A stretch of 64,000 bases of DNA from Clostridia bacterium (lineage in GTDB: Bacteria; Bacillota; Clostridia; Oscillospirales; RGIG577): NCBI GenBank assembly GCA_017513095.1, contig JAFWDJ010000011.1:731-64730 (forward strand), in the 5' to 3' direction. Under the pieces are notes generated by a model. The model was not told the DNA's origin and did no database searches. It saw nothing but the letters and a program-made list of their open reading frames with translations. Positions 4,297-27,238 of this stretch are shown here, piece after piece (positions within the stretch are counted from its first letter, which is position 1; each line of letters starts with the position of its first letter). The translations under genes and the position numbers were made by a program.

Positions 4297-5382
4297 AAGT
4301 ATCGTCTTGCCGGTGTCGCGGTCGAAGATGAAGAACGAGCCTTCGCTGATTTCGAGCGTGACCTTGTCGCCCGCCTTTACGGAGGCGTCAACGTCAACGA
4401 GCGTATCGAAAAGCTTGCTCTTGAAAAAGCCCGTGCGCACTCCGTTCTCGTCGCGGACTTCCTCGAATCTGCCCTTTATGCCGCTTTCGGCGTGCCTGCT
4501 CGGCTTCAGACCGTTATGGCGTATGCCCACGGTGACCTCGCGGCCGACGTAATTCGAGAGCTTCTTGTTTTCGGGCGCGAAAACGGGTATAACGGACGAC
4601 GCCTTATCGATCGAGAGCACGTATCCGCTCTCCCCCTCGGAGAGCACGCCCTCGACGGTCGTCATGTGGAAGTGGTTTATGAACTGCGCAACGTAGACGT
4701 TCGCGGGCGTTTCGTATATCTTTCTCACGCCGTCCACCTGCTGTATGTAGCCGTTCTTTAATACGACGGTGCGCGCCTTCAGCGCGAGCGCCTGCTCGGG
4801 ATTGTTAGTTGCAACGAGCATCGTAAGCTTGAACTTCTTATTAAGATTTATTATAGCCTGCCAGAAGAGCTCCTGCTCCGACGGCGGGATATCGGGGAAC
4901 GGCTCGTCTATGAGTATTATCTTCGGCTCACGGATGACGGCGCGGGCAAGTATCGCCGCGAAGCTCTCCGCCGGAGCAAGCTCCTCGGGGAGGCTCTCAA
5001 GGATGCCCGTAATGCCCATGTCCTCGGCCGCCTTCATTATTCTTTCGCGCCTCTTCGCTGCGGGCAGCTTCACGAGGCGAAGGCTGAATTCAAGATTCTC
5101 GTATACCGTATGGCCCGGATAGAACGTGTGGCTCGGAAATATCACAGAGACGTCTCTGTCCTTAGGTGTTACGCCCGCGCAGCTCTGCTGCTCTATGAAT
5201 ATTTCGCCCTCGTCGGCCGCTTCAAGGCCGCAGATTATATTTAAGATAGTGCTTTTGCCCGACCCCTTCGGACCTGCAAGCACTACAAGCTCTCCCGTGG
5301 AAAGATCAAGATTGAAATTCGAAACGGCGTTTATGCCGTTACCGTAGCGTTTCGACACGCCCTTAAGCAATAAACCGGACAT
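4294..5382 (-). CDS. MalK/MsmX-like ABC transporter ATP-binding protein with degenerate catalytic motifs
   Basis: The start was moved to the ATG at 5382 (MSGLLLKGVSKRYG), which has a GGGGGTGA RBS. Walker A (GPKGSGKST) and Walker B (ILIDEP) are present. The signature LSGGQ is replaced by LAPAE, the Q-loop Q by P, and the H-loop H by N (ATNN). A MalK-type C-terminal regulatory domain is present (ETPANVYVAQFIN...). Confidence 0.8.
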   Translation of the reverse strand: MSGLLLKGVSKRYGNGINAVSNFNLDLSTGELVVLAGPKGSGKSTILNIICGLEAADEGEIFIEQQSCAGVTPKDRDVSVIFPSHTFYPGHTVYENLEFSLRLVKLPAAKRRERIMKAAEDMGITGILESLPEELAPAESFAAILARAVIREPKIILIDEPFPDIPPSEQELFWQAIINLNKKFKLTMLVATNNPEQALALKARTVVLKNGYIQQVDGVRKIYETPANVYVAQFINHFHMTTVEGVLSEGESGYVLSIDKASSVIPVFAPENKKLSNYVGREVTVGIRHNGLKPSRHAESGIKGRFEEVRDENGVRTGFFKSKLFDTLVDVDASVKAGDKVTLEISEGSFFIFDRDTGKTIL

Positions 5383-9460: not shown

Positions 9461-10516
9461 ATGACGGATCATATTGAGCTTATAAATACGCTAAAAGAAA
9501 CGCGCAGCCTTTCGGACGAGGGATTAAAGGCGCTTATGCGCGGCGGCGGGGAGTGCGACGCTGCTCTCTTTTCGGCCGCCGACACCGTGCGCCGCGCGAT
9601 ATACGGCGACAAGGTATATATTCGCGGGCTTATCGAATTTACGAATTACTGTAAGAACAACTGCTATTACTGCGGCATACGGCGCGCAAACCAAAGCCTT
9701 CAGCGCTACCGCCTTTCTGCGGACGAGATACTTGAGTGCTGCGCCGAGGGGTACTCTCTCGGCTTTCGCACCTTCGTGCTTCAGGGCGGCGAGGACCCGT
9801 ATTATACGGACAAGGTGTTCTGCGGCATAATCGAAAGGATTCGCGCCGCGTTCCCCGACTGCGCGATAACGCTCTCCGTCGGGGAAAAGCCGAAGGAAAG
9901 CTATCAGGCGTATTTCGACGCGGGCGCAAACCGCTATCTTTTGCGGCACGAGACGGCCACGGACGCGCATTACAGGCGGCTTCATCCCGAAAGCATGAGC
10001 CTTGAAAACAGAAAGCGCTGCCTTTATTGGCTAAAGGAGATCGGTTTCGAGGTAGGCTCCGGCTTTATGGTGGGCTCGCCGTATCAGACGCCGGACGATC
10101 TGTTACGCGACCTTCGCTTTTTAGGTGAGCTTCGGCCCGACATGATAGGCATAGGGCCGTTTCTTACGCACCCCGAAACGCCCTTTGCGGGCTTTGAGAA
10201 CGGAAGCTTTGAGCTTACGCTTCGGCTTATATCCATACTGCGCCTTATGTTCCCGTACGCGCTCATTCCCGCGACTACGGCGCTCGGTACGATTCGTCCC
10301 GACGGGCGCGAAATGGGGCTTCGCGCGGGCGCGAACGTAGTAATGCCCAATCTCTCCCCCGTTCGCACGCGAAAGCTCTATGAGCTTTACGAAAACAAGA
10401 TATGCACGGGAGAGGAATCGGCGCAGTGCCGCGGCTGTCTTGAGCGGCGCGTAGAGTCCGCGGGTTACCGCATTGTCACCGACATAGGCAGCGCAAAGCG
10501 CGAGACGAAAAGATAA
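9461..10516 (+). CDS. hydE: [FeFe]-hydrogenase maturase HydE-like radical SAM enzyme
   Basis: The start was moved to the ATG at 9461 (MTDHIELI). It has the CKNNCYYCGIRRAN radical SAM motif. The blocks FVLQGGEDPYY, RYLLRHETA and IPATTALGTI match my memory of Thermotoga HydE along the whole length. Confidence 0.7.
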   Translation: MTDHIELINTLKETRSLSDEGLKALMRGGGECDAALFSAADTVRRAIYGDKVYIRGLIEFTNYCKNNCYYCGIRRANQSLQRYRLSADEILECCAEGYSLGFRTFVLQGGEDPYYTDKVFCGIIERIRAAFPDCAITLSVGEKPKESYQAYFDAGANRYLLRHETATDAHYRRLHPESMSLENRKRCLYWLKEIGFEVGSGFMVGSPYQTPDDLLRDLRFLGELRPDMIGIGPFLTHPETPFAGFENGSFELTLRLISILRLMFPYALIPATTALGTIRPDGREMGLRAGANVVMPNLSPVRTRKLYELYENKICTGEESAQCRGCLERRVESAGYRIVTDIGSAKRETKR

Positions 10517-10537
10517 TATTTAAAGGAATTTTGCCAT

Positions 10538-11611
10538 ATGAACAACAAGGCCATAATCGCCATGAGCGGCGGCGTGGACTCGAGCGTAGCGGCGTATCTT
10601 ATGAAGGAGCGCGGATACGACTGCATCGGAGTCACGATGAAGCTTTTTTATAATGAGGACGCGGGCGTCCCGCGCGAGCAGAGCTGCTGCTCCCTCGAGG
10701 ACACCGAGGACGCGCGAAGCGTCGCGCGCTCTTTGGGTATGCCGCACTATGTTTTCAACTTCTCGGATAAGTTCCGCGAGTGCGTTATCGACCGCTTCGT
10801 ATATTCGTACGAGAACGGCATGACGCCCAATCCCTGCATCGACTGCAATAAGTATCTTAAGTTCGACAAGATGTTCCTTCGCGCGCGCGAGCTCGGGTGC
10901 AGCTATGTCGTCACGGGCCATTACGCGCGGATAGAGTATAACGAAAAAACAGGGCGCTATATCTTAAAAAAGGGCGCCGACGCGAATAAGGACCAAAGCT
11001 ACGTCCTCTATTCCATGACGCAGGAGCAGCTTATGCACACGATATTCCCGCTCGGCGGCATGACGAAGGACGAAATACGCGCCATAGCCGAAAAAAACGG
11101 CTTTATAAACGCAAAAAAGCGCGACAGTCAGGACATCTGCTTCGTGCCCGACGGAAAATACGCCGATTTTATCGAGCGTTACACGGGAAGAACGTACCCC
11201 GAGGGCGACTTTGTCGATAAAAACGGAAACGTACTCGGCCGACACCGCGGCATAATCCGTTACACGGTGGGACAAAGGAAGGGACTCGGCCTTGCGCTTC
11301 CCGAGCCGCTATACGTATCAGACGTCGACCCCGCGAAGAACACAGTAACGCTTGCGAAGAACAGCGAGCTTTTTTCAAGCGTGCTCATCGCGAAGAATAT
11401 AAACCTCATCCCCGTAGAAAAGATCGCGTCGCCCGTGCGCCTCAGCGCAAAGGTGCGCTACCGCCATCCCGAGGCGGCCGCCACGGTCACGCAGCTCGAC
11501 GCGGACACGATAAAGGTTGAATTTGACACGCCGCAGCGCGCGGTCACGCGCGGTCAGGCCGTCGTACTGTACGACGGAGACGCCGTGTTCGGCGGCGGCA
11601 CGATAGTATAG
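10538..11611 (+). CDS. mnmA: tRNA 2-thiouridine(34) synthase
   Basis: The PP-loop is AMSGGVDSSVAAYL. The catalytic Cys regions are NPCIDCN and SQDICF. Length is 357 aa. Confidence 0.95.
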   Translation: MNNKAIIAMSGGVDSSVAAYLMKERGYDCIGVTMKLFYNEDAGVPREQSCCSLEDTEDARSVARSLGMPHYVFNFSDKFRECVIDRFVYSYENGMTPNPCIDCNKYLKFDKMFLRARELGCSYVVTGHYARIEYNEKTGRYILKKGADANKDQSYVLYSMTQEQLMHTIFPLGGMTKDEIRAIAEKNGFINAKKRDSQDICFVPDGKYADFIERYTGRTYPEGDFVDKNGNVLGRHRGIIRYTVGQRKGLGLALPEPLYVSDVDPAKNTVTLAKNSELFSSVLIAKNINLIPVEKIASPVRLSAKVRYRHPEAAATVTQLDADTIKVEFDTPQRAVTRGQAVVLYDGDAVFGGGTIV

Positions 11612-14668: not shown

Positions 14669-14684
14669 TTAAGAATATACGCAC

Positions 14685-14722
14685 AAAATCCCGCCTTTCA
14701 TTGCGAAAGGCGGGATTTTTTT
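14685..14722 (+). terminator. Intrinsic terminator after nifU
   Basis: AAAATCCCGCCTTT-CATTGCG-AAAGGCGGGATTTT followed by a T-run. Confidence 0.75.
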
Positions 14723-14736
14723 ATTATCGAAATACG

Positions 14737-14765
14737 AAAGAGGCGGCCCAAAGGCCGCCTCTTTT
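14737..14765 (-). terminator. GC-rich hairpin after the giant protease gene
   Basis: AAAGAGGCGGCC-CAAA-GGCCGCCTCTTT lies 16 nt past the stop at 14781. The U-tail is weak. Confidence 0.5.
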
Positions 14766-14780
14766 GGCTTATTCTATGCT

Positions 14781-17700
14781 TTAAGCTTCGTTCATAAGCT
14801 CAATAAAGCGATGGAGTATCGCCGCCGTCTGGGCGCGCGTTGCGCTGCCCTGCGGATTTAAGGTGTTCTCGTCCATGCCGGTTATTATGCCGTTCATGCA
14901 GCACCAGGATACAGCCTCGAACGCCCAATCGGAGATGTCGCCTGCGTCGTCGAAGTCAAGTCTCATGCTCCATGCGCCCTCGAAGCCGCCGCCCGAAAGC
15001 TTTACGTAACGGTAGATTATTGTCGCCATCTGCTCGCGCGTAATCGTATCGTCGGGGCCGAACGTCTTTTCGTTATAGCCCGTCACAACGCCGTTTTCGG
15101 CCGCCCACGTTACCGCGTCACGGCAGTACGAGAGGCTTCCCACGTCATCGAACGGACATTCGCCCGTAACCTCGGGAGAGCCCGCGAGGCGATAAAGCAC
15201 GGTGACTATCATGCCGCGCGTAGTCTTTAGGTCGGGCGAGAAGTGAGTCTCGTCAGTGCCGACCATGAGACCGTTCTCGTATACGTACTTTACGTCGCCG
15301 TAGAACCACTGTCCCTCGGATACGTCAACGAAGGGCAGTCCGCCGGAGGGCTCCGTCTTTTCTGTCCACTTCGCGTAAACGGTCGTGTTCGAGCTTATCG
15401 TAATAGGCGCGGTTATCGGCTTCGTAAGCTCCTTATCGCTGTACCAGCCGTCGAACTCGTATCCGTCCCTTACGGGCACGTACTTCGAAAGGTCTACCTT
15501 GCCGCCGCTTACGACAACGCTGTCCATCGCGATGCCGCCGTCCGTGTCGAACGTTATGCGGAAGCTCGATTTGCCGGAGCTGCCGCCCCCGCCTCCGCCG
15601 GAGCCTGACTGCTTCGTAAATACAGCCGTGGTCACGGTACTCGGCTTAAGTCCGTCAGCGAAGGCAACTGCCTTTACGGTCGTGGTGTCGCTTATCGCGA
15701 ACGGTGCGGCGTAGGGCGTCGAATTCTCGTCGGGAGCGCTTCCGTCAACTGTGTAGTAAATCTTTGCGCCCTCGGTCGCGCTCGCAATCGTAACCGTCGT
15801 GCTGTTTTGGAACGTGCCGCCCGCGGGCGATATAACGGGGGCCGCCGCGGATGCGGGCTCTTCCATAAGGCTTACGTCAAGCGTTATGCCCGTCGTTGTA
15901 TGCGTGAGCGTGAGCGTCGTATCATTCTCCGTGAGCACCGTGCCGGGCTCAATCGAGTACGTTATGCCGTATTTTTCAATCTTTTCATACGGAGCCTCGC
16001 TTACGGTGCCGTCGGAGAGGCTTATGTTAAGTACCATGTCGCTTAATTTGAGCGGCTCGCCCACTGTCTGCTTCGCGGGCGGAGTCTTAAGCGCAAGACC
16101 CGTCACCTGTGCGACAACGCGCGTGTTCGTTACCGTCACGGGGCTTCCCACGGGCTTCCACGATACGCCGTTGTAGCGGTATTCCTGATAAGTTATGCTG
16201 CCTACCGCGGTCGCGCCGTCGGTCTTGGGATAGTAGGGCGTTACGACCGTCGTCTCGCTCTCGGCAAGCTCGGCACCGGCCATAACTACGCCGTCCTCGG
16301 TTATCTGCCAGCTTACGGGGATGAACTTCGTATCTCCCTCGACCTTGCCCTCAAGGTCGTAATTATCGGCAACGCTCCACATCCAGCAGCGCTTATCGAC
16401 TACGATGTTGTCGCTGCGGCAGAACTCGACCTTATTGTTCGCGGGATCCGCCGTAACGGGGCCGCGAACGACCACAACGCCGCGCGCCGCCGAAAGTCCG
16501 CCGCACTCCGCGAATATCGTCGCCGTGCCCTCGGACACCGCCGTTACCTTGCCGTTTGCGTCTACCGATGCGACCTCGGCGTCATTTGTGCTCCACGTGA
16601 TGGCTTCGCTTCCGTCGCCGCCGGTCAGAACGATTTTCGCGCTTAAATCGGCGCTGTCGCCTACGGTCATATTCTCGTTTTCATAATCCGCGAACGCGAT
16701 CGCCGTAACGGGAGGCGTCGGGTTCTTTTCGGGTACCGTAAGAAGGCCCGAATCGTACTTCGCGCCGAGTGCCATGCCGTTGTAGCACGACACCTCGCCG
16801 TCAATCGTCACTCTGAACGACGCGCCTACGGGCAGCGGATCGAAGGCGGTCTGGTCTATCGCATAGATAAACTCACGGCCTACCGTAACACCGCTCTGTG
16901 CGCCGCCCTCCGTGGGCGTCTGCTTTGCTCCCTCGGCGGTCACGGTCGCGTCGGCGGCCGTAATCTCGCCGGAAAGCTCGGTATCGCCGAAGAATATGCG
17001 AACGCTTCCGTCGCCCTTCAGGGAGTCGAGCGTCATATACTTATCGAACGTGATATAGATTACCTCGCCGTTCTTATCGGCGCGGACCTCTGTCACCGCG
17101 GGCGTGCCCGTGGACGTCATGTTGATATCGACGTCGAGATGCGGAGGCGGTACGGGAAGTACCATGCTTTCCGCGGGCAGATATCCCGCCTTTTCAAATA
17201 CGACCTTCCATGCGCCCGCAAGAACGTCCCATCCGTAGTGACCGTCCGCGTCCGTAGACAGCGGGTTCTCAGGCTGGCCGTAATCCGTCGAGTTCCAAAG
17301 CGTCCATGCGCCTTCCTCGCTCCACGCGGGCAGCGTCTGCCAGTATTCGCTCTGCCACTCGGCGTTGCTTTCGTCAAATCCCGCGGGAACGCTGCCGTTG
17401 TAATAGTACAGCGAAGCCTTAACGCCCGAAAGCGTGTTCGCAGTATTTACCTCGTAGACCGTGCCCGAGGGGTCGATAAGCGAATTGTTGGATCTGGGCG
17501 CGGTGCTGTTGGCTCCGCCTGCGGGCGGCTGCTTGCCGTTCGGAGGATCGCAGTCGGGATTGCTTCCGCCGCCTCCTCCTCCGCCTCCGTCAGGATCAAG
17601 GTCCTTCAGAGCGTTGTTTATATCCTGAAGATGCTTCTTCTGGGCGTCATACAGCGAATCTATAACATTGTCCTTCTGGCTTAACGTTGCGTCTCCCAAA

Positions 17701-20700
17701 AGGCTTCCGCCAAATCCCAAAAGACCGAGTCCGGTACCTATATCGTCGGTCATGTCCTTTGCTATCTGCTTAGCCTTGTCGAAGTCCTCGTCAAGCTCCT
17801 TATTGTATTCATCATATTTATTCTGCGGATCGCCGCCGCCATCGCCGCCATCGCCGCCGTTGTCGCACGGACCTCCGCTGCCTCCGGGAGGAGCGGGCGT
17901 CGGCATCGGGGGCGCGGACGGAGTCGGGAGATCGTCGTAATCATGGGTAAGAAGCTCCCCGGCTTCCGCTACCTTTTTGGCTGCCTGTAATTCGTCGATA
18001 TGTTCCTTGCCCCAGTTAATTATCGGACCGAACAAAGAACCAAGCCCGTCCGCGGACATCGTCTGCGCCTCTTCCCCTGCGTCTATAAGGGGCAGAGACA
18101 TTACGCCGAGGCCGCTTATTCTGGACGTATACGTCAACTCATCCGCGTTGATATCGACGTCAACTCTTATTTTAGCGGGCGTCCCGGACAAAAGTACGGT
18201 CGCAGCTTCATCTGTGTTAAGTGCAGGGTTTTGGTCCTTCCACTCGTAGTATATCTGATACTGCGCGCCGTCGGCCGTTTCAACGGCAGGCAGATACCAG
18301 CGGTTGTCGGGGCCGAAAAGGTCTTTCATTGCGGCCTCGAACTCTGCTTCGCCGTAATCGTAAAGCCCGTTTGCAACAAGCGATACGTACTTATCCCAGT
18401 CGGCTATCGCCTGATCCTGAATCTCCTGCGATTCGAAGGGCTTAAGCACAACTCCCCTGTCCGCGCTGTACGTATGTGCGTAGGGTGAGGGGTCTTCGTC
18501 CAAATCTATTTCCGCCACGGGGGCCGAAAGATCGGTCTCTTCCTCCCATTCTATCCAGAAGGCGCTTACGGGATGTATCGCGTCTCCCAGCTTTCCTTCT
18601 CCTTTAAAAGTATCCCCGTAACGAACAAGCTTTAACGTATCAAGCTCGCTTTCCGTATCGGCCTTTAAATATACCGCTTTAACTCTATCGGGATTATTGA
18701 ATGACACTGATGCCCATAAGTTTTGAAACGGTGATATCGTTAAATAGGAATGATCGAAAAGCGAATATCCGCATACATTTGCCGATTTAAGCGTGGGCGA
18801 GCCGTCATATACTACGGAAAAATACGCCTCTGCCGTTTCAAGCGGCTCGCTTTCACCCTCTCTTGAAACGCTTACCCTTGCTTTTCCTTCGTGTATCTTA
18901 TTTTCGGGGAATAAAGTTACGGTATACTTTCCCACAGGGCCGTAAAGCGCTATTGTTTTCTGCGTTCCGTCAACAACGCTTCCGTCGGGTCTTATCTCCT
19001 CGACGGTAAGTATATAATCATCGCCGGAGCCGCCGTACTTTGAAAGGTCAAACTCGGTAAATACAGAAATGCCTTGGCTTGCCGCATCCGTCTTTCTTAC
19101 CTTTGGATTATATATATCGGCTGAAAGCACGCTGTGATATGCAGCCGAAGAAGCTAACGGAACGGTAAATTCGCGGCCGTCAAAAGTAAGCTTTCGGAAA
19201 AACTGCGATACGGCGCCGTTTTCAAGCGCGTCGGCGGAGATATCATAGCTCAGATGCAGTACGTTAAGGTCAACGCCGTTGTCATTTATATAAACGGTAT
19301 TATCCTTTACCTCATAGGATACAGGCGCATTTCCCCATCCGGGCACTCTTGCAAGCGAAACGTTCTTTGCTCCGTCCGGCAGTATTACCATAGCCGACTG
19401 GTCTGAAACCTCACTGCTTCGCGAATATTGTATGGTGACTCGCGTTTTAACGCGGAAGGTATCCGCGGTCAAATACGATACCTCCGGGCCTGAGGAGAAT
19501 CCGTTCTCCGATTTATTTATGCGGTTCATAACGGGATCGTTTTCTATCAACAGTGTACCCGGATCGCTGCTTTGGGGCGTAACTTTTACGTATTCGCGCG
19601 AACTAAACAACCAGTACCGGGGATCTTCTCCGGCGTCTGTGTTCCATGTACCGACCACGAGGTAAGACACTCCGGGTATAAGATATACCTTTGTCTCGGA
19701 CAGCGTAGTCACCTCGTCGAATACTTTTTCGCCGGTCGACAGCGCATATACGATAATTCTTCGCGGCGTAAGATAATAATCGTCCGTCAAGGTGTTTATC
19801 TTTACCGTATACTCCGCGGCCGTCATTTTATCGACCGTTACGTTAATTTCATCGGGTACGCCCGCGGAACCCTTTGCAAGCGTAAACGTGCCCGTTCCCG
19901 AAAGACTGTAATCTTCGCCTATGCCGGATACGCTCAGCGTAACGGGAGTGCCCTTCGGAAGCTGAAGCGCGTTGAATAATACGCTTCCCTTCCCCGTCGG
20001 TGTATTCAGGGAGGCCGTGCTGTTGCCTATTCGGTAACAAAGCGATGAGGCGTCCGCGCTGCTCTGCCCGATGGGAATAAGGTTCCCGTCTTCCTCTATA
20101 AGCACGTTAACTTTAAGCTCAAGCGAACCCCTGAACGTGCGGTCAGCCTGTATCGTAACGCTCTGCGCGTCGAATGCTGCACTTGTATTCGCGTTTACAT
20201 AATACTCGCCGTCAACGCCCGTAGACGCGTCGTAGTCAATACTTGCGTAGAACGGCGAATGATTCACGCTCGTCCACGATACGGCAGCTTTGCCGTTTTC
20301 GTCGGTCGTTGCCTCTGCCATGGTATGGGACGACTTCAAATAGACAAAGCGGGCGTTAGGCGCAGGCTCTCCCAACTCGTTTTCGATATTTACCAAAATG
20401 GTGCGCGTCTCCTGACTCACTGTGTCAAGTACCGCCGTTTCAAGACGCAGAGCTTTACCGGTTGCGCCAAAGCTTAAAGTGCGCGGCTCCGCGCGAAGTG
20501 TGCCGTACTCGGTCTTGGCGTAGAACGCTTCCGTAGTTACTTTGACGTCTCCGTCCGTGCGCAGGGGAATTATTTCGGTATCCGTTTCATACCAGATGAC
20601 CTGTCCGCTTTCATTCGTAACGCCGCCGTGTCTTGAGTCGGTCGAAACCCTTACCCCCTCAATCGGGGTTCCCTGCTTATCGACAATCCTTAAGGCGAAC

Positions 20701-23700
20701 AGATACTTTTCGGCGGAGACGTTAACGGACGCGTTCGAGTACGATACCGTTATGTCCGTCCATCTGTAAAGCCTCAGTCCGTTTCCGTCTGTCAGAACGA
20801 GGGCGTAATCATCGCCCGCGGGCGCCGTGAACGTACACGTTCCCGTTTTGGCGGAAATTTCGCTTTGAGCGCTGAATCCGTTCCCCGTCAAGGTAAGACT
20901 CATACCGGAAACGTTTGTAAGCTCTGCGAAGTCGTAATTTACACTAAAGTCGACGGCGCGGTCGATGCGGTCGTTTAACTCTGCGGAAAGCTTCTCGCCC
21001 GAAGCGTCGGCCTCGAAGTATATCTTCGTTACGGCCGCGGCCTCGTCGGGGAGCGTAAAGGCCGCCGTCCACAATACGCCGCTTCCCTGCGCATCGCACG
21101 TAAGCTCGGTCGTACTGCCGTCGTTTAATTCAAGCGTAAGCTTCGCCGCCGCGCTCTGTATGCTTCCCGATACGTGCGCGTTCACGCTTATATCGGCGCC
21201 TTTCATACTGCCGAGCCTGTTCTTATCGTATGCGGCGGCAAGGCGGTTGACGCTCGGTTCGTTCGTAAGCGTGACCGATACGGCTTCGCTCTCCTGCGAG
21301 CGGTTGCCCGCCGCGTCAATAGCGCTCACCGTATACGTGCACGTCGTGCCGGGCTCTATGCCCAGGTGCGTATACATGCGCGTGCAGATGCGGGCAAGCT
21401 CCGTACCGTTGCACGTAAGAATATATGCGCTTACGGCCGTGTCATCCGTGCTTCTGCCCCACCTTAAGGAAACGCTGCCGTTCGTTTGAAGCTCTGCGGT
21501 AAGTCCTCCGGGTACGGTGGGAGGCGTCGTGTCGGACGCGGCGTCGATATTCGTGCCCGCGGTCGCTGCGGCGCTTACGGCGCCGTCGGCGTCGACGGAG
21601 TATATCGAATAATTATAGAAGCGTCCTCCGCTTAGCTGCGCATCGGTATACGTCGTGCCCTTTATGTTGTCGGCAATTATCTCGCCGTCGCGCGCGAGGC
21701 GGTAGTGGTCGCAGTCCTCAGACGCGGACGCCGTCCACGTAAGAACCGCCTTGCCCGAGGCGGGCACCGCCTTAAAATCGGTCGGCGGCAGAAGGATCGG
21801 CGACGCCGTCGATTCGCCCGTTACGGTAAAGAATACGCTTTCACTCTTAAACGGATTCGTTTGTCGGCCAAGCGTCTTTATCTCGGCCTTTGCGGTATAC
21901 GTTCCCGCCGCAAGGCCGGTAAACTCGGCCACTTCTTCCGTTATATATTTCTCGCTCGAGGCCACGGGCGTGTTCGTGGAGTCATAAACGGTTATCTTCA
22001 CTGTGGGCGTCTCTGCGTCATCGGCCGACTCAAGCGACGCCTCTGCCTCTTCAAGCTCGCCGTCCGGATCGTTCAAGTATGCAAAGTACACGGCCACGTT
22101 TTCGGCAGAGTCCTTTATTCCCGCGGCGATCCTTACGGTATCGCCGACCGCATACTGACTTTTTTCTACGTATATGCCCGCCGAAAGCTCCGTGGTTCCA
22201 ACGTATTTGCTTGTGCCGACGGTCGATTCGGGAGCTGCAAAGAAGTAGTATTCCGCATACTCGCCGTATGCCTCGTAATCGCGGAATCCTATATAAAGCT
22301 CTTCCTTTTCGCGGCAGTTCTGATATATCACGCGGTCAAACCCCGACCAGCCGAGTGTGTATTCAAGCGGTTCGTCGGGCGTCTCGTCAAACGCGAACCA
22401 GTACGCGGCGTCGGCGTACAGAGAATCCTCCTCCGGAGTCGAAAGCGTGAGTCCCGGGTTCTGTTCGTTAAACGCGATCTCAATCGTGACCGTCGCGCCC
22501 TCGGGCGTATTCGTAAGGTCGGCCGTCGCGCGTCCCATAAGGAGTGCGCCGTTGTCAACGCCGAATACCGCGACGTCGTATTTGCCGCCTACGGGGAGAT
22601 CGGCATAATACGAGCTGGTATTTGCGTCCGCGGATTCGTCCGCCGCGTCGGAGGCGCTGCTCGGGATAAAATACTCATCCGAATTCGCATATTCATACAC
22701 GAAATTGCGTATTTCGGGGTCGCCGTTCTCATCCTCAAGGTAAGCGTACACGCCGCCTCCGTACAGCTCGCCCATGTCGTAGCTGCCCTTATCGTTTTCG
22801 GTGATTAAAACGACCTTAACGCGTGCGGAAGGACGGCTTTCCTGCGGATTCATCGTATATTCAAGCGTGAAGCTGTCATTTCCGAGCCATCCGAGCGCGG
22901 ACTGGTTAAGCTCTAAAACGATGCGGTTTGGGCCCACGGGCGCGCTCGCATGGTTTTGCGTGAGAACGAACTCGGCAACGCCCTCCCCGTCGGGCTCGTA
23001 CGCGCCGCCCCTGCTGTAGCCGCGCATATTCCAAGTACCGCTTGCGGAGTCGTAATCCTCGTTATAGATACTGAAGCCGCCGTACGTCTCGGACGCGGTG
23101 CTGTTAAAGTCCTTCGTGCCGCTGTAATAGTATCCGTAATCGGTCACCGGGTTTCCTATGCTGTCGGTGAGCTTTAAGGAGAGCGTAAGGTCGCTCTGTC
23201 CGATTTTCGGGGACGCGGGCGTAAGAGTAAGATTTTCGGCCTTAAGCGGGCCCGCGCCGATTGAGAGCGACTTTGCGCCCGTAATCGTCTGCTTTCCCAA
23301 AGACACGCCGATATATCTGTCTCGCGGATTCACGAGGTATCCCGTTATCTCGTATTCACCCGGCGCGACGCTCACGCTTCCGCCCGCTGCGGGAAGCTCA
23401 AATACGGCGCCGTCGAGCGAGAGTAAAAGCCGGCTCGGCTGATACGTGCCCGAAGGCATAAGCGTTACCGTATTCGCGGACGCGAGATCTGCGTCAAGAT
23501 TCCATACGATATCGTCGTCGACCGTTTTCTTCAAAATATAGTCTTCGCCGCTCGCGCAAAGCGAAATCTCGGAGTCGCACGAAAGCGAGAACGAAGCGCT
23601 TGCGCTCTCGTCGAGCGTAACGAGCTCAAAGCTGCCCCCCGCGGTCATGGCGGTTATATTCGCGCCTTCGAACGCGTCGCTGCCCGTTACGGTCACGTTT

Positions 23701-25514
23701 ATGCTGTCGCTTAAATTTACGTTAAGATTCTTTGATATGCCGAAGCTCTGCAGCGTGATGCTCTTTATCGCGTAAAAGCCCTCGCCGGATACGAAGAGCG
23801 TGGCCGCTGCTTCGGGATTGCTTAAATCGAGGATGCATCTGCCCTTTGAATCGGCACGGGCACCCGTTTCCACGCCGTATTCGTCGACGATAAGAGCCGT
23901 TGCGCCCGTCGCGGGCTTATTGTCGGGGCCGAATACCGTAACGGTCACGGTATTTTCGGAGCGTATCACGTAAAACCTTCCGCATTCCTCAGAATTGGAC
24001 GCGGGCTGCTCCACAGATTGACCCATCGCGTCGGTAAATCGGCATTTCCATGAATAGAACGACTCGTCAAGCGCGCTCGTATCGAAGGACGCCTCTATAT
24101 ATTCGCGCTCGGTCCCGTTAAGCGTGACCTCGCCCAAAAGAATGTCGCCTGACGAGCTGTATACGTCGCTTGCGTATACGCTCATCGTCGCGGCTTTCGC
24201 TCCCGGGTTGTATAGTAAGCCGCCAAGCGTTATTTCATCCTTAAAAGCCTCCGTGCTTACGCCCGGATCGGTCGTAAAGAGTACGCCGCCGCTTCCCATG
24301 AGCGAAATGCCGTTCGCGTAGTCCGTGAGGAGATTGGACGCATTCTGCGAACGGTCGAACGCGGTCATAACGGGCGCCATGTCGGACGAGTTCGCCGCAG
24401 CTGAGCTCTTCAGCGCCGCCGTCATGCCCGAAAGCAGCGCGGCGGAGGCCGACGTACCCGTAAACGTCTCATACGAGCTGCCCGCGCCCGTGGTCAAAAG
24501 ATCGGTGCCGGGAAGCCAGAAGAAGCTTACGCCCAGGTCCGAGGAGCGTACAGGCTTATTCGACCACGACTCGTACGAATAATAGGTCGAGTTCTTTTTC
24601 GCGTTCTTATGCGAGCCCGCGCAAATAACGCCGCGAAGCGCCGCGGGGTAATAATTGTAGCCTGCCGTGGAGATCGAATTTCCGTCGTTTCCGGCGGCAG
24701 CTATAACGGTGCAGCCCTTCGAAATCGCGTAGTCGACCGACTCCTGCATCGCCGCGGGAGCCGATTTCATGCTCTGACCGAGCGAGAGGTTTATTATATC
24801 CGCGCCGTTATCGGCAGCATAGCGGATACCCGCGGCGATATTGGCCACGGTACCCTTGTCATTCTCGGAAAGAACTCTTACGGGCATCACAGATACGGGC
24901 ATTTTGCCCGCAATTCCCGCAATACCGATATTGTTGTCGGCGTTGGCGGCGATAAGTCCCGCAACCTTGGTGCCGTGCGACTCCAACGATACGTCGCTGT
25001 TTTCGTCGGCCGCTATCGCCTTATCCGAAACTATATCCCAGCCGTCAATAACGCGTCCCGAAAGGTCGGGATGCGCGCCGTTTATGCCGCTGTCAACGAC
25101 AGCAACTGTAACGGGCACGGCGCTTGCGAGATAATTCTCGTCAAGAAGCTGCCATGCGCTCTCGGCATTTATAATCGGGATGTACTGCTGATCGGAGTAC
25201 CTCTCGTCGTTATAGTAGCCGCAGGCTTCCATTACGGCATTCTCCGTAACGGATATTACATCGGGACGGCCCGCATAATCGGACGCGTCCCCGCCTGAAA
25301 CGAGAACTGTCCCCTCCCACAGCAGTCTGCCGCCGTTTACGTCTGCGAACGCCTGCGCGGCCGCCGAATCGGTAAACGTGACAATCCATTCGCCTGACGC
25401 GCCGCGGTCATCGGCAGACGCCGCCATTACGCCCATCGGAAGCATGGTCGCAATCATGGCGAGCGCAAGCAGAAGCCCCAGCGCCTTTTTGAACGATCTT
25501 TTCATTTCCGCCAC
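14781..25514 (-). CDS. Giant (3577 aa) secreted S8 subtilisin-like protease with multiple Ig-like/FN3/Big_2 domains and C-terminal SLH anchor
   Basis: - Single uninterrupted ORF with a GGAG RBS.
- Signal peptide: KKALGLLLALAMIATMLPMGVMAASA.
- S8 catalytic triad: VAVVDSGI (D, ~25095), HGTKVAG (H, ~24975), GTSASAA (S, ~24452).
- Two FN3 domains at ~21255-21795.
- Big_2 domain at ~16465-16710.
- Chitobiase-C-like Ig domain at ~15615-15850.
- Listeria-Bacteroides (Flg_new) repeat at ~15365-15570.
- Three SLH repeats at ~14784-15340. Confidence 0.9.
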   Translation of the reverse strand: MAEMKRSFKKALGLLLALAMIATMLPMGVMAASADDRGASGEWIVTFTDSAAAQAFADVNGGRLLWEGTVLVSGGDASDYAGRPDVISVTENAVMEACGYYNDERYSDQQYIPIINAESAWQLLDENYLASAVPVTVAVVDSGINGAHPDLSGRVIDGWDIVSDKAIAADENSDVSLESHGTKVAGLIAANADNNIGIAGIAGKMPVSVMPVRVLSENDKGTVANIAAGIRYAADNGADIINLSLGQSMKSAPAAMQESVDYAISKGCTVIAAAGNDGNSISTAGYNYYPAALRGVICAGSHKNAKKNSTYYSYESWSNKPVRSSDLGVSFFWLPGTDLLTTGAGSSYETFTGTSASAALLSGMTAALKSSAAANSSDMAPVMTAFDRSQNASNLLTDYANGISLMGSGGVLFTTDPGVSTEAFKDEITLGGLLYNPGAKAATMSVYASDVYSSSGDILLGEVTLNGTEREYIEASFDTSALDESFYSWKCRFTDAMGQSVEQPASNSEECGRFYVIRSENTVTVTVFGPDNKPATGATALIVDEYGVETGARADSKGRCILDLSNPEAAATLFVSGEGFYAIKSITLQSFGISKNLNVNLSDSINVTVTGSDAFEGANITAMTAGGSFELVTLDESASASFSLSCDSEISLCASGEDYILKKTVDDDIVWNLDADLASANTVTLMPSGTYQPSRLLLSLDGAVFELPAAGGSVSVAPGEYEITGYLVNPRDRYIGVSLGKQTITGAKSLSIGAGPLKAENLTLTPASPKIGQSDLTLSLKLTDSIGNPVTDYGYYYSGTKDFNSTASETYGGFSIYNEDYDSASGTWNMRGYSRGGAYEPDGEGVAEFVLTQNHASAPVGPNRIVLELNQSALGWLGNDSFTLEYTMNPQESRPSARVKVVLITENDKGSYDMGELYGGGVYAYLEDENGDPEIRNFVYEYANSDEYFIPSSASDAADESADANTSSYYADLPVGGKYDVAVFGVDNGALLMGRATADLTNTPEGATVTIEIAFNEQNPGLTLSTPEEDSLYADAAYWFAFDETPDEPLEYTLGWSGFDRVIYQNCREKEELYIGFRDYEAYGEYAEYYFFAAPESTVGTSKYVGTTELSAGIYVEKSQYAVGDTVRIAAGIKDSAENVAVYFAYLNDPDGELEEAEASLESADDAETPTVKITVYDSTNTPVASSEKYITEEVAEFTGLAAGTYTAKAEIKTLGRQTNPFKSESVFFTVTGESTASPILLPPTDFKAVPASGKAVLTWTASASEDCDHYRLARDGEIIADNIKGTTYTDAQLSGGRFYNYSIYSVDADGAVSAAATAGTNIDAASDTTPPTVPGGLTAELQTNGSVSLRWGRSTDDTAVSAYILTCNGTELARICTRMYTHLGIEPGTTCTYTVSAIDAAGNRSQESEAVSVTLTNEPSVNRLAAAYDKNRLGSMKGADISVNAHVSGSIQSAAAKLTLELNDGSTTELTCDAQGSGVLWTAAFTLPDEAAAVTKIYFEADASGEKLSAELNDRIDRAVDFSVNYDFAELTNVSGMSLTLTGNGFSAQSEISAKTGTCTFTAPAGDDYALVLTDGNGLRLYRWTDITVSYSNASVNVSAEKYLFALRIVDKQGTPIEGVRVSTDSRHGGVTNESGQVIWYETDTEIIPLRTDGDVKVTTEAFYAKTEYGTLRAEPRTLSFGATGKALRLETAVLDTVSQETRTILVNIENELGEPAPNARFVYLKSSHTMAEATTDENGKAAVSWTSVNHSPFYASIDYDASTGVDGEYYVNANTSAAFDAQSVTIQADRTFRGSLELKVNVLIEEDGNLIPIGQSSADASSLCYRIGNSTASLNTPTGKGSVLFNALQLPKGTPVTLSVSGIGEDYSLSGTGTFTLAKGSAGVPDEINVTVDKMTAAEYTVKINTLTDDYYLTPRRIIVYALSTGEKVFDEVTTLSETKVYLIPGVSYLVVGTWNTDAGEDPRYWLFSSREYVKVTPQSSDPGTLLIENDPVMNRINKSENGFSSGPEVSYLTADTFRVKTRVTIQYSRSSEVSDQSAMVILPDGAKNVSLARVPGWGNAPVSYEVKDNTVYINDNGVDLNVLHLSYDISADALENGAVSQFFRKLTFDGREFTVPLASSAAYHSVLSADIYNPKVRKTDAASQGISVFTEFDLSKYGGSGDDYILTVEEIRPDGSVVDGTQKTIALYGPVGKYTVTLFPENKIHEGKARVSVSREGESEPLETAEAYFSVVYDGSPTLKSANVCGYSLFDHSYLTISPFQNLWASVSFNNPDRVKAVYLKADTESELDTLKLVRYGDTFKGEGKLGDAIHPVSAFWIEWEEETDLSAPVAEIDLDEDPSPYAHTYSADRGVVLKPFESQEIQDQAIADWDKYVSLVANGLYDYGEAEFEAAMKDLFGPDNRWYLPAVETADGAQYQIYYEWKDQNPALNTDEAATVLLSGTPAKIRVDVDINADELTYTSRISGLGVMSLPLIDAGEEAQTMSADGLGSLFGPIINWGKEHIDELQAAKKVAEAGELLTHDYDDLPTPSAPPMPTPAPPGGSGGPCDNGGDGGDGGGDPQNKYDEYNKELDEDFDKAKQIAKDMTDDIGTGLGLLGFGGSLLGDATLSQKDNVIDSLYDAQKKHLQDINNALKDLDPDGGGGGGGGSNPDCDPPNGKQPPAGGANSTAPRSNNSLIDPSGTVYEVNTANTLSGVKASLYYYNGSVPAGFDESNAEWQSEYWQTLPAWSEEGAWTLWNSTDYGQPENPLSTDADGHYGWDVLAGAWKVVFEKAGYLPAESMVLPVPPPHLDVDINMTSTGTPAVTEVRADKNGEVIYITFDKYMTLDSLKGDGSVRIFFGDTELSGEITAADATVTAEGAKQTPTEGGAQSGVTVGREFIYAIDQTAFDPLPVGASFRVTIDGEVSCYNGMALGAKYDSGLLTVPEKNPTPPVTAIAFADYENENMTVGDSADLSAKIVLTGGDGSEAITWSTNDAEVASVDANGKVTAVSEGTATIFAECGGLSAARGVVVVRGPVTADPANNKVEFCRSDNIVVDKRCWMWSVADNYDLEGKVEGDTKFIPVSWQITEDGVVMAGAELAESETTVVTPYYPKTDGATAVGSITYQEYRYNGVSWKPVGSPVTVTNTRVVAQVTGLALKTPPAKQTVGEPLKLSDMVLNISLSDGTVSEAPYEKIEKYGITYSIEPGTVLTENDTTLTLTHTTTGITLDVSLMEEPASAAAPVISPAGGTFQNSTTVTIASATEGAKIYYTVDGSAPDENSTPYAAPFAISDTTTVKAVAFADGLKPSTVTTAVFTKQSGSGGGGGGSSGKSSFRITFDTDGGIAMDSVVVSGGKVDLSKYVPVRDGYEFDGWYSDKELTKPITAPITISSNTTVYAKWTEKTEPSGGLPFVDVSEGQWFYGDVKYVYENGLMVGTDETHFSPDLKTTRGMIVTVLYRLAGSPEVTGECPFDDVGSLSYCRDAVTWAAENGVVTGYNEKTFGPDDTITREQMATIIYRYVKLSGGGFEGAWSMRLDFDDAGDISDWAFEAVSWCCMNGIITGMDENTLNPQGSATRAQTAAILHRFIELMNEA

Positions 25515-25621
25515 TCCTTCTATTGATTTTTATACTCAAAAAAATTACTTACAGTGAACAAAACCTCGAAAAAACATGCAGGATGACCATAACTTCCATA
25601 GCGAGAATGCTTTATTTATTT

Positions 25622-25650
25622 ATTATATCAAAGTTAACGCGCATATTCAA
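25622..25650 (-). promoter_or_regulatory. Sigma-A promoter of the giant protease gene
   Basis: The minus strand reads TTGAAT-17 nt-TATAAT, about 100 nt upstream of the ATG at 25514. Confidence 0.55.
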
Positions 25651-25694
25651 GTGTGATAAAAGAAGGATGGGTAAGAAGAGATGAGTCGGTGCGT

Positions 25695-25718
25695 AAAAAA
25701 AGCACGCCGAAGCGTGCT
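25695..25718 (-). terminator. Intrinsic terminator, second copy of the tRNA-Trp terminator
   Basis: AGCACGC-CGAA-GCGTGCT hairpin with a 7-U tail on the minus strand. It is identical in 23 nt to 26140-26162. Confidence 0.7.
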
Positions 25719-25744
25719 GTTGGTGTTGGGCTAATATCTTTAGT

Positions 25745-26146
25745 GAAATATCTCGCGTTCGCTCGATGCGATATAATTTGCCAAGGCAAATTGCGATATA
25801 TTCGGCTGCCGCCGAATGTGATATAATATAAATCCACTCACGCCCGCAGGCATATCGCTCGCCGCAGGCGAATATCGCGCGCGAAGCGCATATCGCAAAT
25901 CCACGCAGTGGATTTATATCGTTGAAAAAGAAGGATTCGTCCCCTCGAATTCTTTGGCGAGATATCTCGCGTTCGCTCGATGTGATATAATTTGCCAAAA
26001 CAAATTGCGATATATTCGGCTGCCGCCGAATGCGAAATGATATAAATCCGCTCAACGCCCGCAGGCATATCGCTCGCCGCAGGCGAATATCGCGCGCGAA
26101 GCGCATATCGCAAATCCACACAGTGGATTTATATCACTGAAAAAAG
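25745..26146. repeat. Two tandem ~186-bp copies (period 214 bp) of a non-coding hairpin/heptamer-patterned element
   Basis: Copy A is 25745-25930 and copy B is 25959-26146. I count about 12 substitutions and 1-2 single-base indels between them. Each copy has GCGATAT-type heptamers in the left half and ATATCGC in the right half, interleaved with short perfect hairpins. Confidence 0.9.
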
Positions 26147-26167
26147 CACGCCGAAGCGTGCTTTTTT
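26140..26167. terminator. Terminator of tRNA-Trp (bidirectional hairpin)
   Basis: AAAAAAGCACGC-CGAA-GCGTGCTTTTTT starts 2 nt after the tRNA CCA end. Confidence 0.8.
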
Positions 26168-26168
26168 C

Positions 26169-26244
26169 TGGCAGGGGCAGTAAGGATCGAACTCACGACA
26201 CGCGGTTTTGGAGACCGCTGCTCTACCTGCTGAGCTATACCCCT
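26169..26244 (-). tRNA. trnW: tRNA-Trp (anticodon CCA), CCA-encoded
   Basis: I folded the 76-nt cloverleaf by hand.
- Acceptor stem: AGGGGTA/TGCCCCT.
- D arm: GCTC..GAGC.
- Anticodon stem GCGGT/ACCGC, with loop CTCCAAA.
- T arm: GTGAG-TTCGATC-CTTAC.
- Discriminator G followed by CCA. Confidence 0.95.
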
Positions 26245-26259
26245 TTATATGACTATGAA

Positions 26260-26289
26260 AGTATATCACAGAGTTTTAATGCTTGTCAA
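26260..26289 (-). promoter_or_regulatory. Promoter of tRNA-Trp
   Basis: The minus strand reads TTGACA-18 nt-TATACT with an extended TG. The predicted start is ~9 nt before the mature 5' end. Confidence 0.6.
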
Positions 26290-26365
26290 TATTTTTTTGC
26301 GTTTTATTGACCCGAAACGCTAAAAATGATATATTTAAACAAACACCGAGAAGGGGGTTTTTATA

Positions 26366-27238
26366 ATGAGATACGAAGGCACGATATACCGTCCGCCGAG
26401 CGAGGCGTACAGCCTTATAATACAGCACACGATAGGCTGTGCGCGAAACGACTGCACCTTCTGTTCGATGTATAAGGACAAGAGCTTCAGGATTAGAAAG
26501 CCCGCGGAGGTCATCGCGGACCTTGTGGACGTGCGGCGCCGCTGCCGCGGGCCCGTCGATAAAATATTCTTGGCCGACGGAGACGCGCTGATTGCGAAGA
26601 CCGACGACCTTCTTACCGTACTCGGCGCGATAAGGCAGATATACCCCGAGTGCGAGCGCGTAACGTCGTACGGCGCGCCCGCGGATATCCTCGCAAAATC
26701 GCCCGAGGAGCTTCGTGCGCTTTACGAGGCGGGGCTTAAAATGGTCTACGTCGGGCTTGAATCGGGCGACGACGAGGTATTATCGGCGGTTAAAAAAGGC
26801 GTTACGGCCGCGCAAGCGGTCGAGGCGGGAAAAAAGCTGCGCGCAAGCGGCATGAAGCTTTCGCTCACCGTAATTTCGGGGCTCGGCGGCAGGGCGAGGC
26901 TTAAGGAGCACGCCGTGCTCTCCGCTAAGTGCGTAAGTGAGATTAAACCGGAATACCTGGGCTTTTTAACGCTTATGGTCATCCCCGGCACTCCCCTTTA
27001 CGACGACGTCGAAAGCGGCAGATTCGAGCTTCTCACCGCGCCCGAGGTGGCCGAGGAGATGATACTCTTCCTTGAGAACGTGGACAGCGAGGGCACCGTA
27101 TTCCGCTCAAATCACATCTCGAACTACATTAACCTTCGCGGCACCTTCAACCGCGATGTCCCCCGCCTTATCGCCGAAGTCAAGCAGGTGATGGAAAGCG
27201 AAGCGTATAAGCCCGAATTCTTCCGGCAGCATTTATAA
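26366..27238 (+). CDS. Radical SAM protein of unknown function with CX4CX2C cluster motif
   Basis: 290 aa with a GGGGG RBS. The N-terminus is YRPPSEAYSLIIQHTIGCARNDCTFCSMY, and a glycine-rich SAM motif region follows (VYVGLESGDD). Confidence 0.75.
   Translation: MRYEGTIYRPPSEAYSLIIQHTIGCARNDCTFCSMYKDKSFRIRKPAEVIADLVDVRRRCRGPVDKIFLADGDALIAKTDDLLTVLGAIRQIYPECERVTSYGAPADILAKSPEELRALYEAGLKMVYVGLESGDDEVLSAVKKGVTAAQAVEAGKKLRASGMKLSLTVISGLGGRARLKEHAVLSAKCVSEIKPEYLGFLTLMVIPGTPLYDDVESGRFELLTAPEVAEEMILFLENVDSEGTVFRSNHISNYINLRGTFNRDVPRLIAEVKQVMESEAYKPEFFRQHL

Follow-up and report, generated by a model that had tools for sequence, protein, structure and literature searches.

The window analysed here, a 64,000-nt stretch of contig JAFWDJ010000011.1 from a Clostridia bacterium, carries a tandem pair of non-coding hairpin/heptamer units beside a tRNA-Trp gene and a large protease gene, namely unit A at 25745–25930 (186 nt) and unit B at 25959–26146 (188 nt). 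Judged by their sequences, these units are gene-less, GCGAUAU-subtype copies of Gut-1 (RF01706), an element already catalogued in Rfam, and the pair is not a new class because the Gut-1 motif was already known; what is new is a sequence variant that falls just below the Rfam threshold. A full unit measures ~180 nt, twice the catalogued size, and the Rfam motif accounts for just one of its two arms. In related genomes, the full element lies directly in front of genes for Avd-like four-helix-bundle (4HB) proteins of family PF05635, and the explanation that we favour, with roughly even confidence, is that the hairpin/heptamer array would be the cognate nucleic-acid ligand of an Avd-like pentamer, the window pair being a putative orphan satellite. 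A preliminary description of the window had offered either a new class of structured RNA or a protein-binding array. The former gave way to a sub-threshold variant of Gut-1, the latter is the reading finally favoured, and the units were indeed found to be a non-coding, structured array of hairpins and heptamers.

Loci fetched from genome and metagenome collections for comparison are given L-numbers (L030, L052, etc.), and the family orientation is that of Gut-1, which is the minus strand of the window. One heptamer pattern was scanned through a genome collection, a mostly environmental metagenome collection and virus contigs, with at least 120 loci or matches listed for each. Among the genome loci listed, at least 42 have hairpin spacers; these come mostly from Oscillospiraceae, Acutalibacteraceae, Ruminococcus and other Clostridia metagenome-assembled genomes and show a ++++---- heptamer layout. 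True elements make up 17 of the 120 metagenome loci listed, and one of the 120 viral matches listed has hairpin spacers, on a 4.2-kb contig. A phage or plasmid origin was considered and rejected, on the grounds of this viral count and of a blastn search against phages and plasmids that gave no match. Since a whole-unit MAFFT alignment misaligned the modules, they were parsed directly and no covariance model was built. On the family strand, the order of the unit (h, heptamer; H, hairpin) is H0, CAG, h1-H1-h2-H2-h3-H3-h4-H4, spacer, X, h1'-H5-h2'-H6-h3'-H7-h4'. The first arm, or G-array, holds about four GYGAWAT heptamers between short perfect hairpins and is the part that Rfam models as Gut-1; the second arm, or R-array, follows an AT-rich centre and holds about four ATWTCRC heptamers with hairpins. 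The hairpin H0 upstream is often a true terminator and often stands directly after a tRNA. The family is modular, in that some loci have a G-array only and others an R-array only behind a simple hairpin, and the heptamers are broadly spaced at 17–27 bp with no helical phasing. As side observations, one 11.6-kb metagenome contig (L350) holds three full elements at 580–820, 4722–4878 and 10468–10643, and the lysine riboswitch at L034 655–823 and the ZTP riboswitch at L022 2376–2458 are unrelated to the element.

Gut-1 was first described, from human-gut metagenomes only, and rated a confident RNA with covariation, its function not being given (Weinberg et al. 2010, PMC2864571). In a permissive Rfam scan of 25000–27000, RF01706 matched unit A at 25847–25924 (48.1 bits, E 6.6e-8) and unit B at 26062–26139 (47.7 bits, E 8.4e-8), both on the minus strand and both over model positions 1–77 of 77, with scores below the gathering score of 50 bits. 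The window linker GCGAUAU differs from the Gut-1 linker GUGA(A/U)AU at one position; in the original Stockholm file, several seed members have GUGAUAU linkers and some have GCGAU. Just beyond the model, the seed flanks contain an inverted AUAUCAC-hairpin array of three to four repeats, and the seeds carry a window-like centre, GCCUGCGGC ... AUAUAAUAUCAC. One seed sits after a tRNA and terminator, in another the tail of a tandem copy is visible upstream, AUUUCAC stands in the second arm of a GUGAAAU member, and L243 is the locus type of seed BAAZ01025322.1. Because the seed flanks share the centre, the second array and the context, the window unit is homologous to Gut-1 loci over its whole length. 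Moreover, GTG-type relatives pass the Rfam threshold, with Gut-1 called on their G-arrays at 50.7–62.7 bits (in L051 at gathering score also on the R-array, on the opposite strand), and none of the nine GCG-type relatives tested reaches it; this places the window copies in a GCGAUAU subtype narrowly missed by the model.

Common to Gut-1 and the window units are three to four short hairpins with conserved 7-nt linkers, the centre hairpin GCCUGCGG and the gut-Clostridia habitat, and some seeds resemble the window further in lying after a tRNA and terminator, in an inverted second array and in tandem copies. The differences lie in the linker (GCGAUAU, not GUGAAAU/GUGAUAU), in the score (48 bits against 50) and in the Rfam model, which covers one arm without H0, the second array or the long-range stem P1. 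The classic GUGAAAU seeds BAAY01013587.1 and BAAZ01023714.1 are without the inverted second array and instead show a long-range inverted repeat, GGUCGUGAAGACAGUCUG ... AACUGUCUUCACGAACC, around ~280 nt including a terminator. Gut-1 has neither a function nor a protein partner on record: no paper in the literature searched ties it to any protein or function, and the bipartite architecture, P1 and the PF05635 association are likewise absent from that literature. No other Rfam family matched within 25000–27000, including riboswitches, T-box, 6S, tmRNA, RNase P, GOLLD, ROOL and HEARO, and the preliminary description was right to set the first five aside; the E-value scan of the same interval gave only tRNA, Gut-1 and weak chance matches driven by terminators.

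The protein link was found in the relatives. Three genes downstream of elements encode 118-aa PF05635 proteins, annotated as "23S rRNA intervening sequence protein" (Pfam scans, E 1e-21 to 1e-28), and two protein clades are represented, L030-like and L052-like, each with thousands of homologues. A local hidden Markov model search for PF05635 over ~2.5 Mb of pattern-derived loci found five genes of these clades, all five directly after an element and on the same strand. In a protein-side sample of 25 loci from five independent genomic contexts, a full element ends 15–60 nt before the start codon in 24 loci, covering all five contexts; the exception, L261, is an 889-nt contig with only an array remnant upstream of the gene. 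The gene stands directly 3' of the ATWTCRC array in L030, L034, L052, L096, L309, L243–L260 and L262–L266, and the window copy lacks this adjacency. In addition, the clade consensus sequences are 55% identical, and heptamer type, compared in the relatives only, matches the protein clade with no exception: L030-like proteins go with GTGATAT/ATATCAC in six contexts and L052-like proteins with GCGATAT/ATATCGC in four. Element copies flank the gene on both sides in L260 and L262, and module number varies among strains of one species. The closest solved structure to the 4HB protein is 2rld, with five chains (E 1e-28).

PF05635 proteins resemble Avd of diversity-generating retroelements (DGRs; PMC10053308), and the pentameric Avd barrel grips an RNA stem-loop, with flipped-out bases in equivalent inter-protomer crevices (bioRxiv 10.1101/2023.10.23.563531). 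In the explanation favoured here, the heptamers would be held single-stranded between clamp hairpins as sites for the pentameric 4HB protein. In gene-linked copies, binding would autoregulate the protein's own gene, given that in GCG-type loci the Shine-Dalgarno sequence starts 2–6 nt after the last heptamer. Copies that lack the gene, the window pair among them, would serve as extra binding platforms and could be small RNAs or folded single strands, with bidirectional terminators on either side. The likeness to a DGR is that a PF05635/Avd-like 4HB protein is encoded beside a structured non-coding nucleic acid and that a homopentamer would read displayed bases at equivalent sites on different protomers. 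Unlike a DGR, no fetched locus has a reverse transcriptase or template/variable repeats (no RVT domain near the 4HB gene among the called genes of L243–L266), and the predicted ligand is a repeated heptamer array instead of one stem-loop. The intervening sequences of 23S rRNA, with their S23p/PF05635 reading frame, likewise combine this protein family, in or beside stable-RNA genes, with a flanking inverted-repeat structure; the present element differs in lying after tRNA or protein genes and not inside rRNA helices, and in forming arrays and not one stem. CsrB/RsmZ may offer a parallel in the way of working, not in membership, with a repeated single-stranded word between hairpins and a terminator end, but here the word is in the linkers and not in the loops, and the partner would be of another protein family. 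Somewhat more tentatively than the ligand assignment itself, Gut-1 arrays and a large stand-alone clade of Avd-like pentamers may form a two-part module widespread among gut Clostridia, in which heptamer and specificity would coevolve (GUG versus GCG), the ligand may be single-stranded DNA and not RNA, and the module would multiply and relocate behind terminators and tRNAs, leaving orphan arrays.

Several further features of the 4HB loci were recorded. In L250–L259, loci of one species from different samples, the array-linked PF05635 gene is followed after ~2.5 kb by another, distinct one, placed from ~5090 to the locus end and lying on the minus strand in L250, L253, L254, L256 and L258 and on the plus strand in L252, L255, L257 and L259; the breakpoint of this orientation flip is right after a terminator-like hairpin, with no heptamer array at the junction. 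In the same loci, the numbers of units and of identical modules (GTGATAT plus tgcccttcgggca, 3–8 copies) vary at 1790–2470 and 2869–3229, and the gap from TrmO to the 4HB gene is 220–694 nt. At L260 1840–2100, the 3' end of the 4HB gene and the start of the next H0 are repeated after the second element copy, which indicates a head-to-tail amplification of an [H0-element-gene] module with loss of the second gene.

The pairings within the element were compared across the family. A total of 226 distinct inter-heptamer hairpins contain 1225 Watson–Crick pairs, 15 G·T, 17 A·C and 12 others, and because the hairpin sequences differ widely, it is the complementarity itself that is conserved. The G·U strand test on these hairpins showed no bias to either strand (15 versus 17, binomial p 0.86), and this absence of a wobble preference is unlike ordinary structured RNAs. 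Since it holds family-wide, the GG to AA change in copy B, which does give two U·G pairs on the minus strand and had been taken as a hint of a conserved minus-strand RNA, is an isolated event. On the family strand, loops of the G-array are C-TNC-G in 23 cases and C-GNA-G in none, and loops of the R-array are C-GNA-G in 19 and C-TNC-G in one; counted on the strand that reads ATATCRC, C-GNA-G loops number 58 against one C-TNC-G, with tetraloops GTCA, GCAA, GACA and GTAA. In view of these mirror-image loops, the two arms seem to have equivalent functions on opposite strands, with the centre as the point from which each is read outward.

In addition to the hairpins, segment X is complementary to h1 and the 5' arm of H1, and their pairing is termed P1. 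In an alignment of 27 elements, in which the 5' arm was placed by best complementarity and only about five sequence classes are represented, 92.9% of cells are paired against 71.8 ± 1.6% in shuffles, slid registers give 29–48%, and 11 of 12 pairs have changed on both sides. The two arms of P1 are 64–70 nt apart, and X abuts h1'. By this alignment, P1 is a conserved covarying stem that competes with hairpin H1. In the window, the central AAATCCAC copy at 25826–25838 pairs 13/13 with 25907–25919, and the alternative pairing that the preliminary description had suspected for it proved real. At the centre, a -10-like TAnAAT is present on the family strand in 32 of 37 elements and TGnTAnnnW on the opposite strand in 31 of 37; together with the end terminators, these motifs would possibly fit divergent transcription of two short AUAUCRC/hairpin RNAs. 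Transcripts might then run outward from the symmetric centre, and both arms would read AUAUCRC with GNA/GNRA loops. As a separate observation, promoter-like sites of tRNA-Arg and the 4HB gene at L243 2095–2175 use the GTGATAT word as an extended -10 (TGATATCAT, TGATATATT), and the heptamer coincides in part with the TRTGnTAT stretch of the -10 consensus of Gram-positive bacteria.

In the window, Tandem Repeats Finder reports a single array at 25737–26144 (period 214, 1.9 copies, 92% matches), and global alignment of the two units gives 11 substitutions and two one-base gaps, in line with the period of 214 and the ~12 substitutions and 1–2 indels counted beforehand. All the hairpins and heptamers named in the preliminary description are present, its heptamer coordinates being accurate to within 1 nt, and the pair does lie between two copies of one terminator (T3 and T1), A-run/hairpin/T-run copies at 25696–25721 and 26140–26165 that are 96% identical and form a 26-nt direct repeat. 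Units A and B are separated by another terminator-like hairpin, unlike these two, at 25925–25955. The window contains 33 copies of GCGATAT, where shuffled sequence gives 18.7 ± 4.4; nine of them fall inside 25768–26111, and there is no second cluster and no second element locus elsewhere in the 64 kb. The R-array of unit A has a weak plus-strand Gut-1 match at 25741–25829 (22.3 bits, Rfam scan), and the GG to AA change of unit B sits in its hairpin H6. The features, from low to high coordinates, are as follows.

14781–25514, minus strand: protease open reading frame, 3577 aa, with S8 peptidase and SLH domains
25650–25622, minus strand: promoter-like site of the protease
25696–25721, terminator-like on both strands: T3, A-run/GC hairpin/T-run, closing unit A on the minus strand
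25743–25824, minus strand: second arm (R-array) of unit A, reading ATATCAC-H5-ATATCGC-H6-ATATCGC-H7-ATTTCAC
Unit A R-array in plus-strand order: GTGAAAT, H7 25750–25767, GCGATAT, H6 25775–25792, GCGATAT, H5 25800–25817, GTGATAT
25819–25841: centre of unit A, an AT-rich near-palindrome that holds segment X, with TATATT/TATTAT on the minus strand
25819–25827, plus strand: -10-like sequence of the unit A centre, TGATATAAT, extended -10-like
25825–25838: segment X of unit A, the 3' arm of the long-range stem P1
25842–25924, minus strand: first arm (G-array) of unit A, the Rfam Gut-1 match, reading ACGATAT-H1-GCGATAT-H2-GCGATAT-H3-GCGATAT-H4
Unit A G-array hairpins: H1 25897–25915, H2 25879–25889, H3 25859–25871, H4 25842–25851
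25925–25955: T2, or H0 of unit A, a hairpin with A- and T-runs, called a minus-strand terminator by the scan
25957–26038, minus strand: second arm (R-array) of unit B
Unit B R-array in plus-strand order: GCGAGAT, H7 25964–25981, GTGATAT, H6 25989–26006, GCGATAT, H5 26014–26031, GCGAAAT
26038–26056: centre of unit B, with X at 26039–26052 and the -10-like TGATATAAA at 26038–26046 on the plus strand
26057–26139, minus strand: first arm (G-array) of unit B, the Rfam Gut-1 match
Unit B G-array hairpins: H4 26057–26066, H3 26074–26086, H2 26094–26104, H1 26112–26130
Unit B G-array heptamers: at 26067, 26087, 26105 and 26131
26140–26167: T1, or H0 of unit B, a hairpin that reads as a terminator in both directions and stands right behind the CCA end of tRNA-Trp
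26169–26244, minus strand: tRNA-Trp(cca), outside the element and given for context, with a promoter-like site at 26289–26260 on the minus strand

The surroundings of the element were also compared. Relative to the family strand, 19 of 29 upstream genes and 20 of 26 downstream genes are co-oriented with the element; in several of the remaining upstream cases, a tRNA on the element's strand intervenes. Eight different tRNA genes (Trp, Gly, Tyr, Thr twice, Glu, Val and Arg) have the element right behind their terminator, a distribution that ties it to tRNA ends in general and not to tRNA-Trp. The closest relative, in which the radical-SAM neighbour is 90% identical, carries no array at tRNA-Trp, where the terminator is plain and different, and the same holds for a 77% relative; the window pair is therefore lineage-specific. 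The proximity to tRNA noted beforehand is thus a family trend, and a particular tie to tRNA-Trp or to the protease found no support because of these two relatives, so that the window pair is unlikely to regulate either. The 90% relative (L387) is also without the 10.7-kb protease gene. At L387 2663–2766, only ~100 nt separate NifU from tRNA-Trp, against ~11.5 kb in the window (14669–26168), and the difference is a whole-block indel of the S8/SLH protease gene, its promoter and the array pair; since the neighbouring protease is missing too, the comparison does not mark the element's own ends. Next to the region of the tRNA-Trp terminator, a 9-nt word, TTAGCCCAA, occurs in opposite orientation at window 25726–25745 and L387 ~2718–2736, which may be chance. 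At L077 5335–5391 and L100 7650–7770, one and the same H0 hairpin (aaaacgacaagtttcgacagaaacttgtcgtttt) stands behind the 3' ends of two different tRNAs; in L100, only a tRNA 3' fragment is present, in which ARAGORN finds no gene and which resembles an attachment-site remnant. A common function of the downstream genes was looked for and rejected, as apart from PF05635 they are unrelated (sortase, LiaF, EamA, QueT, GNAT, HTH, DMP19). No consistent target-site duplication was seen, and no transposase, RAYT (REP-associated tyrosine transposase) or integrase was consistently nearby. In L266 (1–1299), a large serine recombinase gene (Resolvase, Recombinase and Zn_ribbon_recom domains) immediately precedes the array and 4HB module, which suggests a mobile-element setting.

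A number of points weigh against the Avd-like ligand explanation. About 90% of the pattern-found elements are gene-less, so the link to the protein is indirect for the window copy, and the window has no PF05635-like reading frame (best E 0.05). The genomic contexts are few and not phylogenetically independent, and the adjacency and the type/clade match may reflect co-inheritance of one mobile module. That G·U pairs are no commoner than A·C (15 versus 17) is odd for an RNA ligand. Moreover, a promoter scan found no -35 and no complete -35/-10 promoter inside the window units, only -10-like motifs; these centre motifs may equally be by-products of the heptamers and P1, and the start site predicted in GTG-type loci would exclude X from the transcript and leave P1 unexplained. 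The main rival, which we consider rather unlikely, is a DNA-level repeat of the repetitive extragenic palindrome (REP), bacterial interspersed mosaic element (BIME) or miniature inverted-repeat transposable element (MITE) kind, whose hairpins would form in single-stranded DNA of the lagging-strand template or the non-template strand and which would spread or multiply in clostridial chromosomes and insert after terminators and tRNA genes, with or without use of the 4HB protein. Stems that are Watson–Crick only, with G·T equal to A·C, and the dominance of C-GNA-G triloops such as TGCGAAGCA speak for it; minihairpins of the d(GCGAAGC) type are exceptionally stable in DNA. The absence of the element at tRNA-Trp in the two closest relatives, the 26-nt direct repeats bracketing the pair, the single H0 hairpin behind two different tRNA ends (L077, L100), the module numbers that differ between strains, the three elements within 11.6 kb of L350 and the 4HB contigs, many of them very short as repeats would give, all point the same way, and a replication-strand bias could just as well explain why 83% of elements run in the direction of the transcription unit before them. 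Like REP, BIME and REPIN (REP doublet) sequences, the element sits between genes, after gene ends, its hairpin units have a short conserved word beside them and perfect stems as in DNA, it occurs in inverted and in tandem order, and its copy number varies; unlike them, its hairpins all differ within one element, it has no linked RAYT, its density is low (one locus in the 64-kb window) and it is associated with PF05635. The lack of a consistent target-site duplication, of a phage or plasmid match beyond the single viral hit with hairpin spacers among the 120 listed, and of a recombinase neighbour other than in L266 also count against such a repeat. The preliminary description had likewise considered dispersed repeats with no positional link to tRNA-Trp or the protease, and this is partly what was found, inasmuch as the pair has no specific link to either.

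Two other models are less likely. Following the preliminary description and the Rfam orientation, the units could give one minus-strand small RNA (~200 nt per unit or ~420 nt in all), folded into hairpins and a rod of paired heptamers with stacked four-way junctions, P1 being a mutually exclusive alternative; we regard this as quite improbable. Gut-1 does read on the minus strand, the co-orientation of the element with upstream tRNA and protein genes makes read-through possible, heptamer type agrees between the two arms across elements, the copy B change suits a minus-strand RNA, and folding of unit A as a rod is feasible by its energy (-53.7 kcal/mol, compared with -40.0 when just the hairpins form). 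However, the minimum-free-energy fold (-68.4 kcal/mol) does not use the rod, which was rejected on comparative pair counts: heptamer position 3 has 85 G-C pairs and 29 T·C mismatches against one compensated T-A, and position 2 has 5 C·A against 6 U·G. The G-array heptamers are degenerate (GTTATAT, GTTCTAT, GTGGTAT) and those of the R-array nearly invariant, L054 having four GTTATAT opposite ATATCAC; the arms are unequal in size in 23 of 35 elements and some loci are one-armed. A single RNA over both halves also sits poorly with the mirror-image loops, with stems that have no G·U excess on either strand and with a strong terminator directly upstream that leaves no room for a promoter. A duplex operator array, in which the heptamers would be sites for a DNA-binding protein of the omega or ParG type that controls a central or adjacent promoter, appears very improbable. 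It would account for heptamers inverted around a -10-like centre and, in GTG-type loci, upstream of the 4HB promoter, and ATATCAC resembles the WATCACW heptad of pSM19035 omega. The heptad arrays of omega and ParG are contiguous or phased, though, and the unphased 17–27 bp spacing therefore argues against an operator; duplex recognition would also leave unexplained the strand-specific loops and the spacers that keep their complementarity despite sequence change, and relatives within PF05635 are known to be barrels that bind RNA, not operators.

Since 2010, Rfam has listed Gut-1 without a function or partner, and the motif had no host organism when discovered, and PF05635 proteins outside DGRs are uncharacterised though thousands exist. 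Through three results, namely that Gut-1 is one arm of a larger element, that a PF05635 gene stands directly behind that element, and that heptamer type tracks protein clade, these two orphan observations become one testable hypothesis. Moreover, the combination of DNA-like stems with strand-specific loops leads one to ask whether certain "structured RNA" motifs work as folded DNA.

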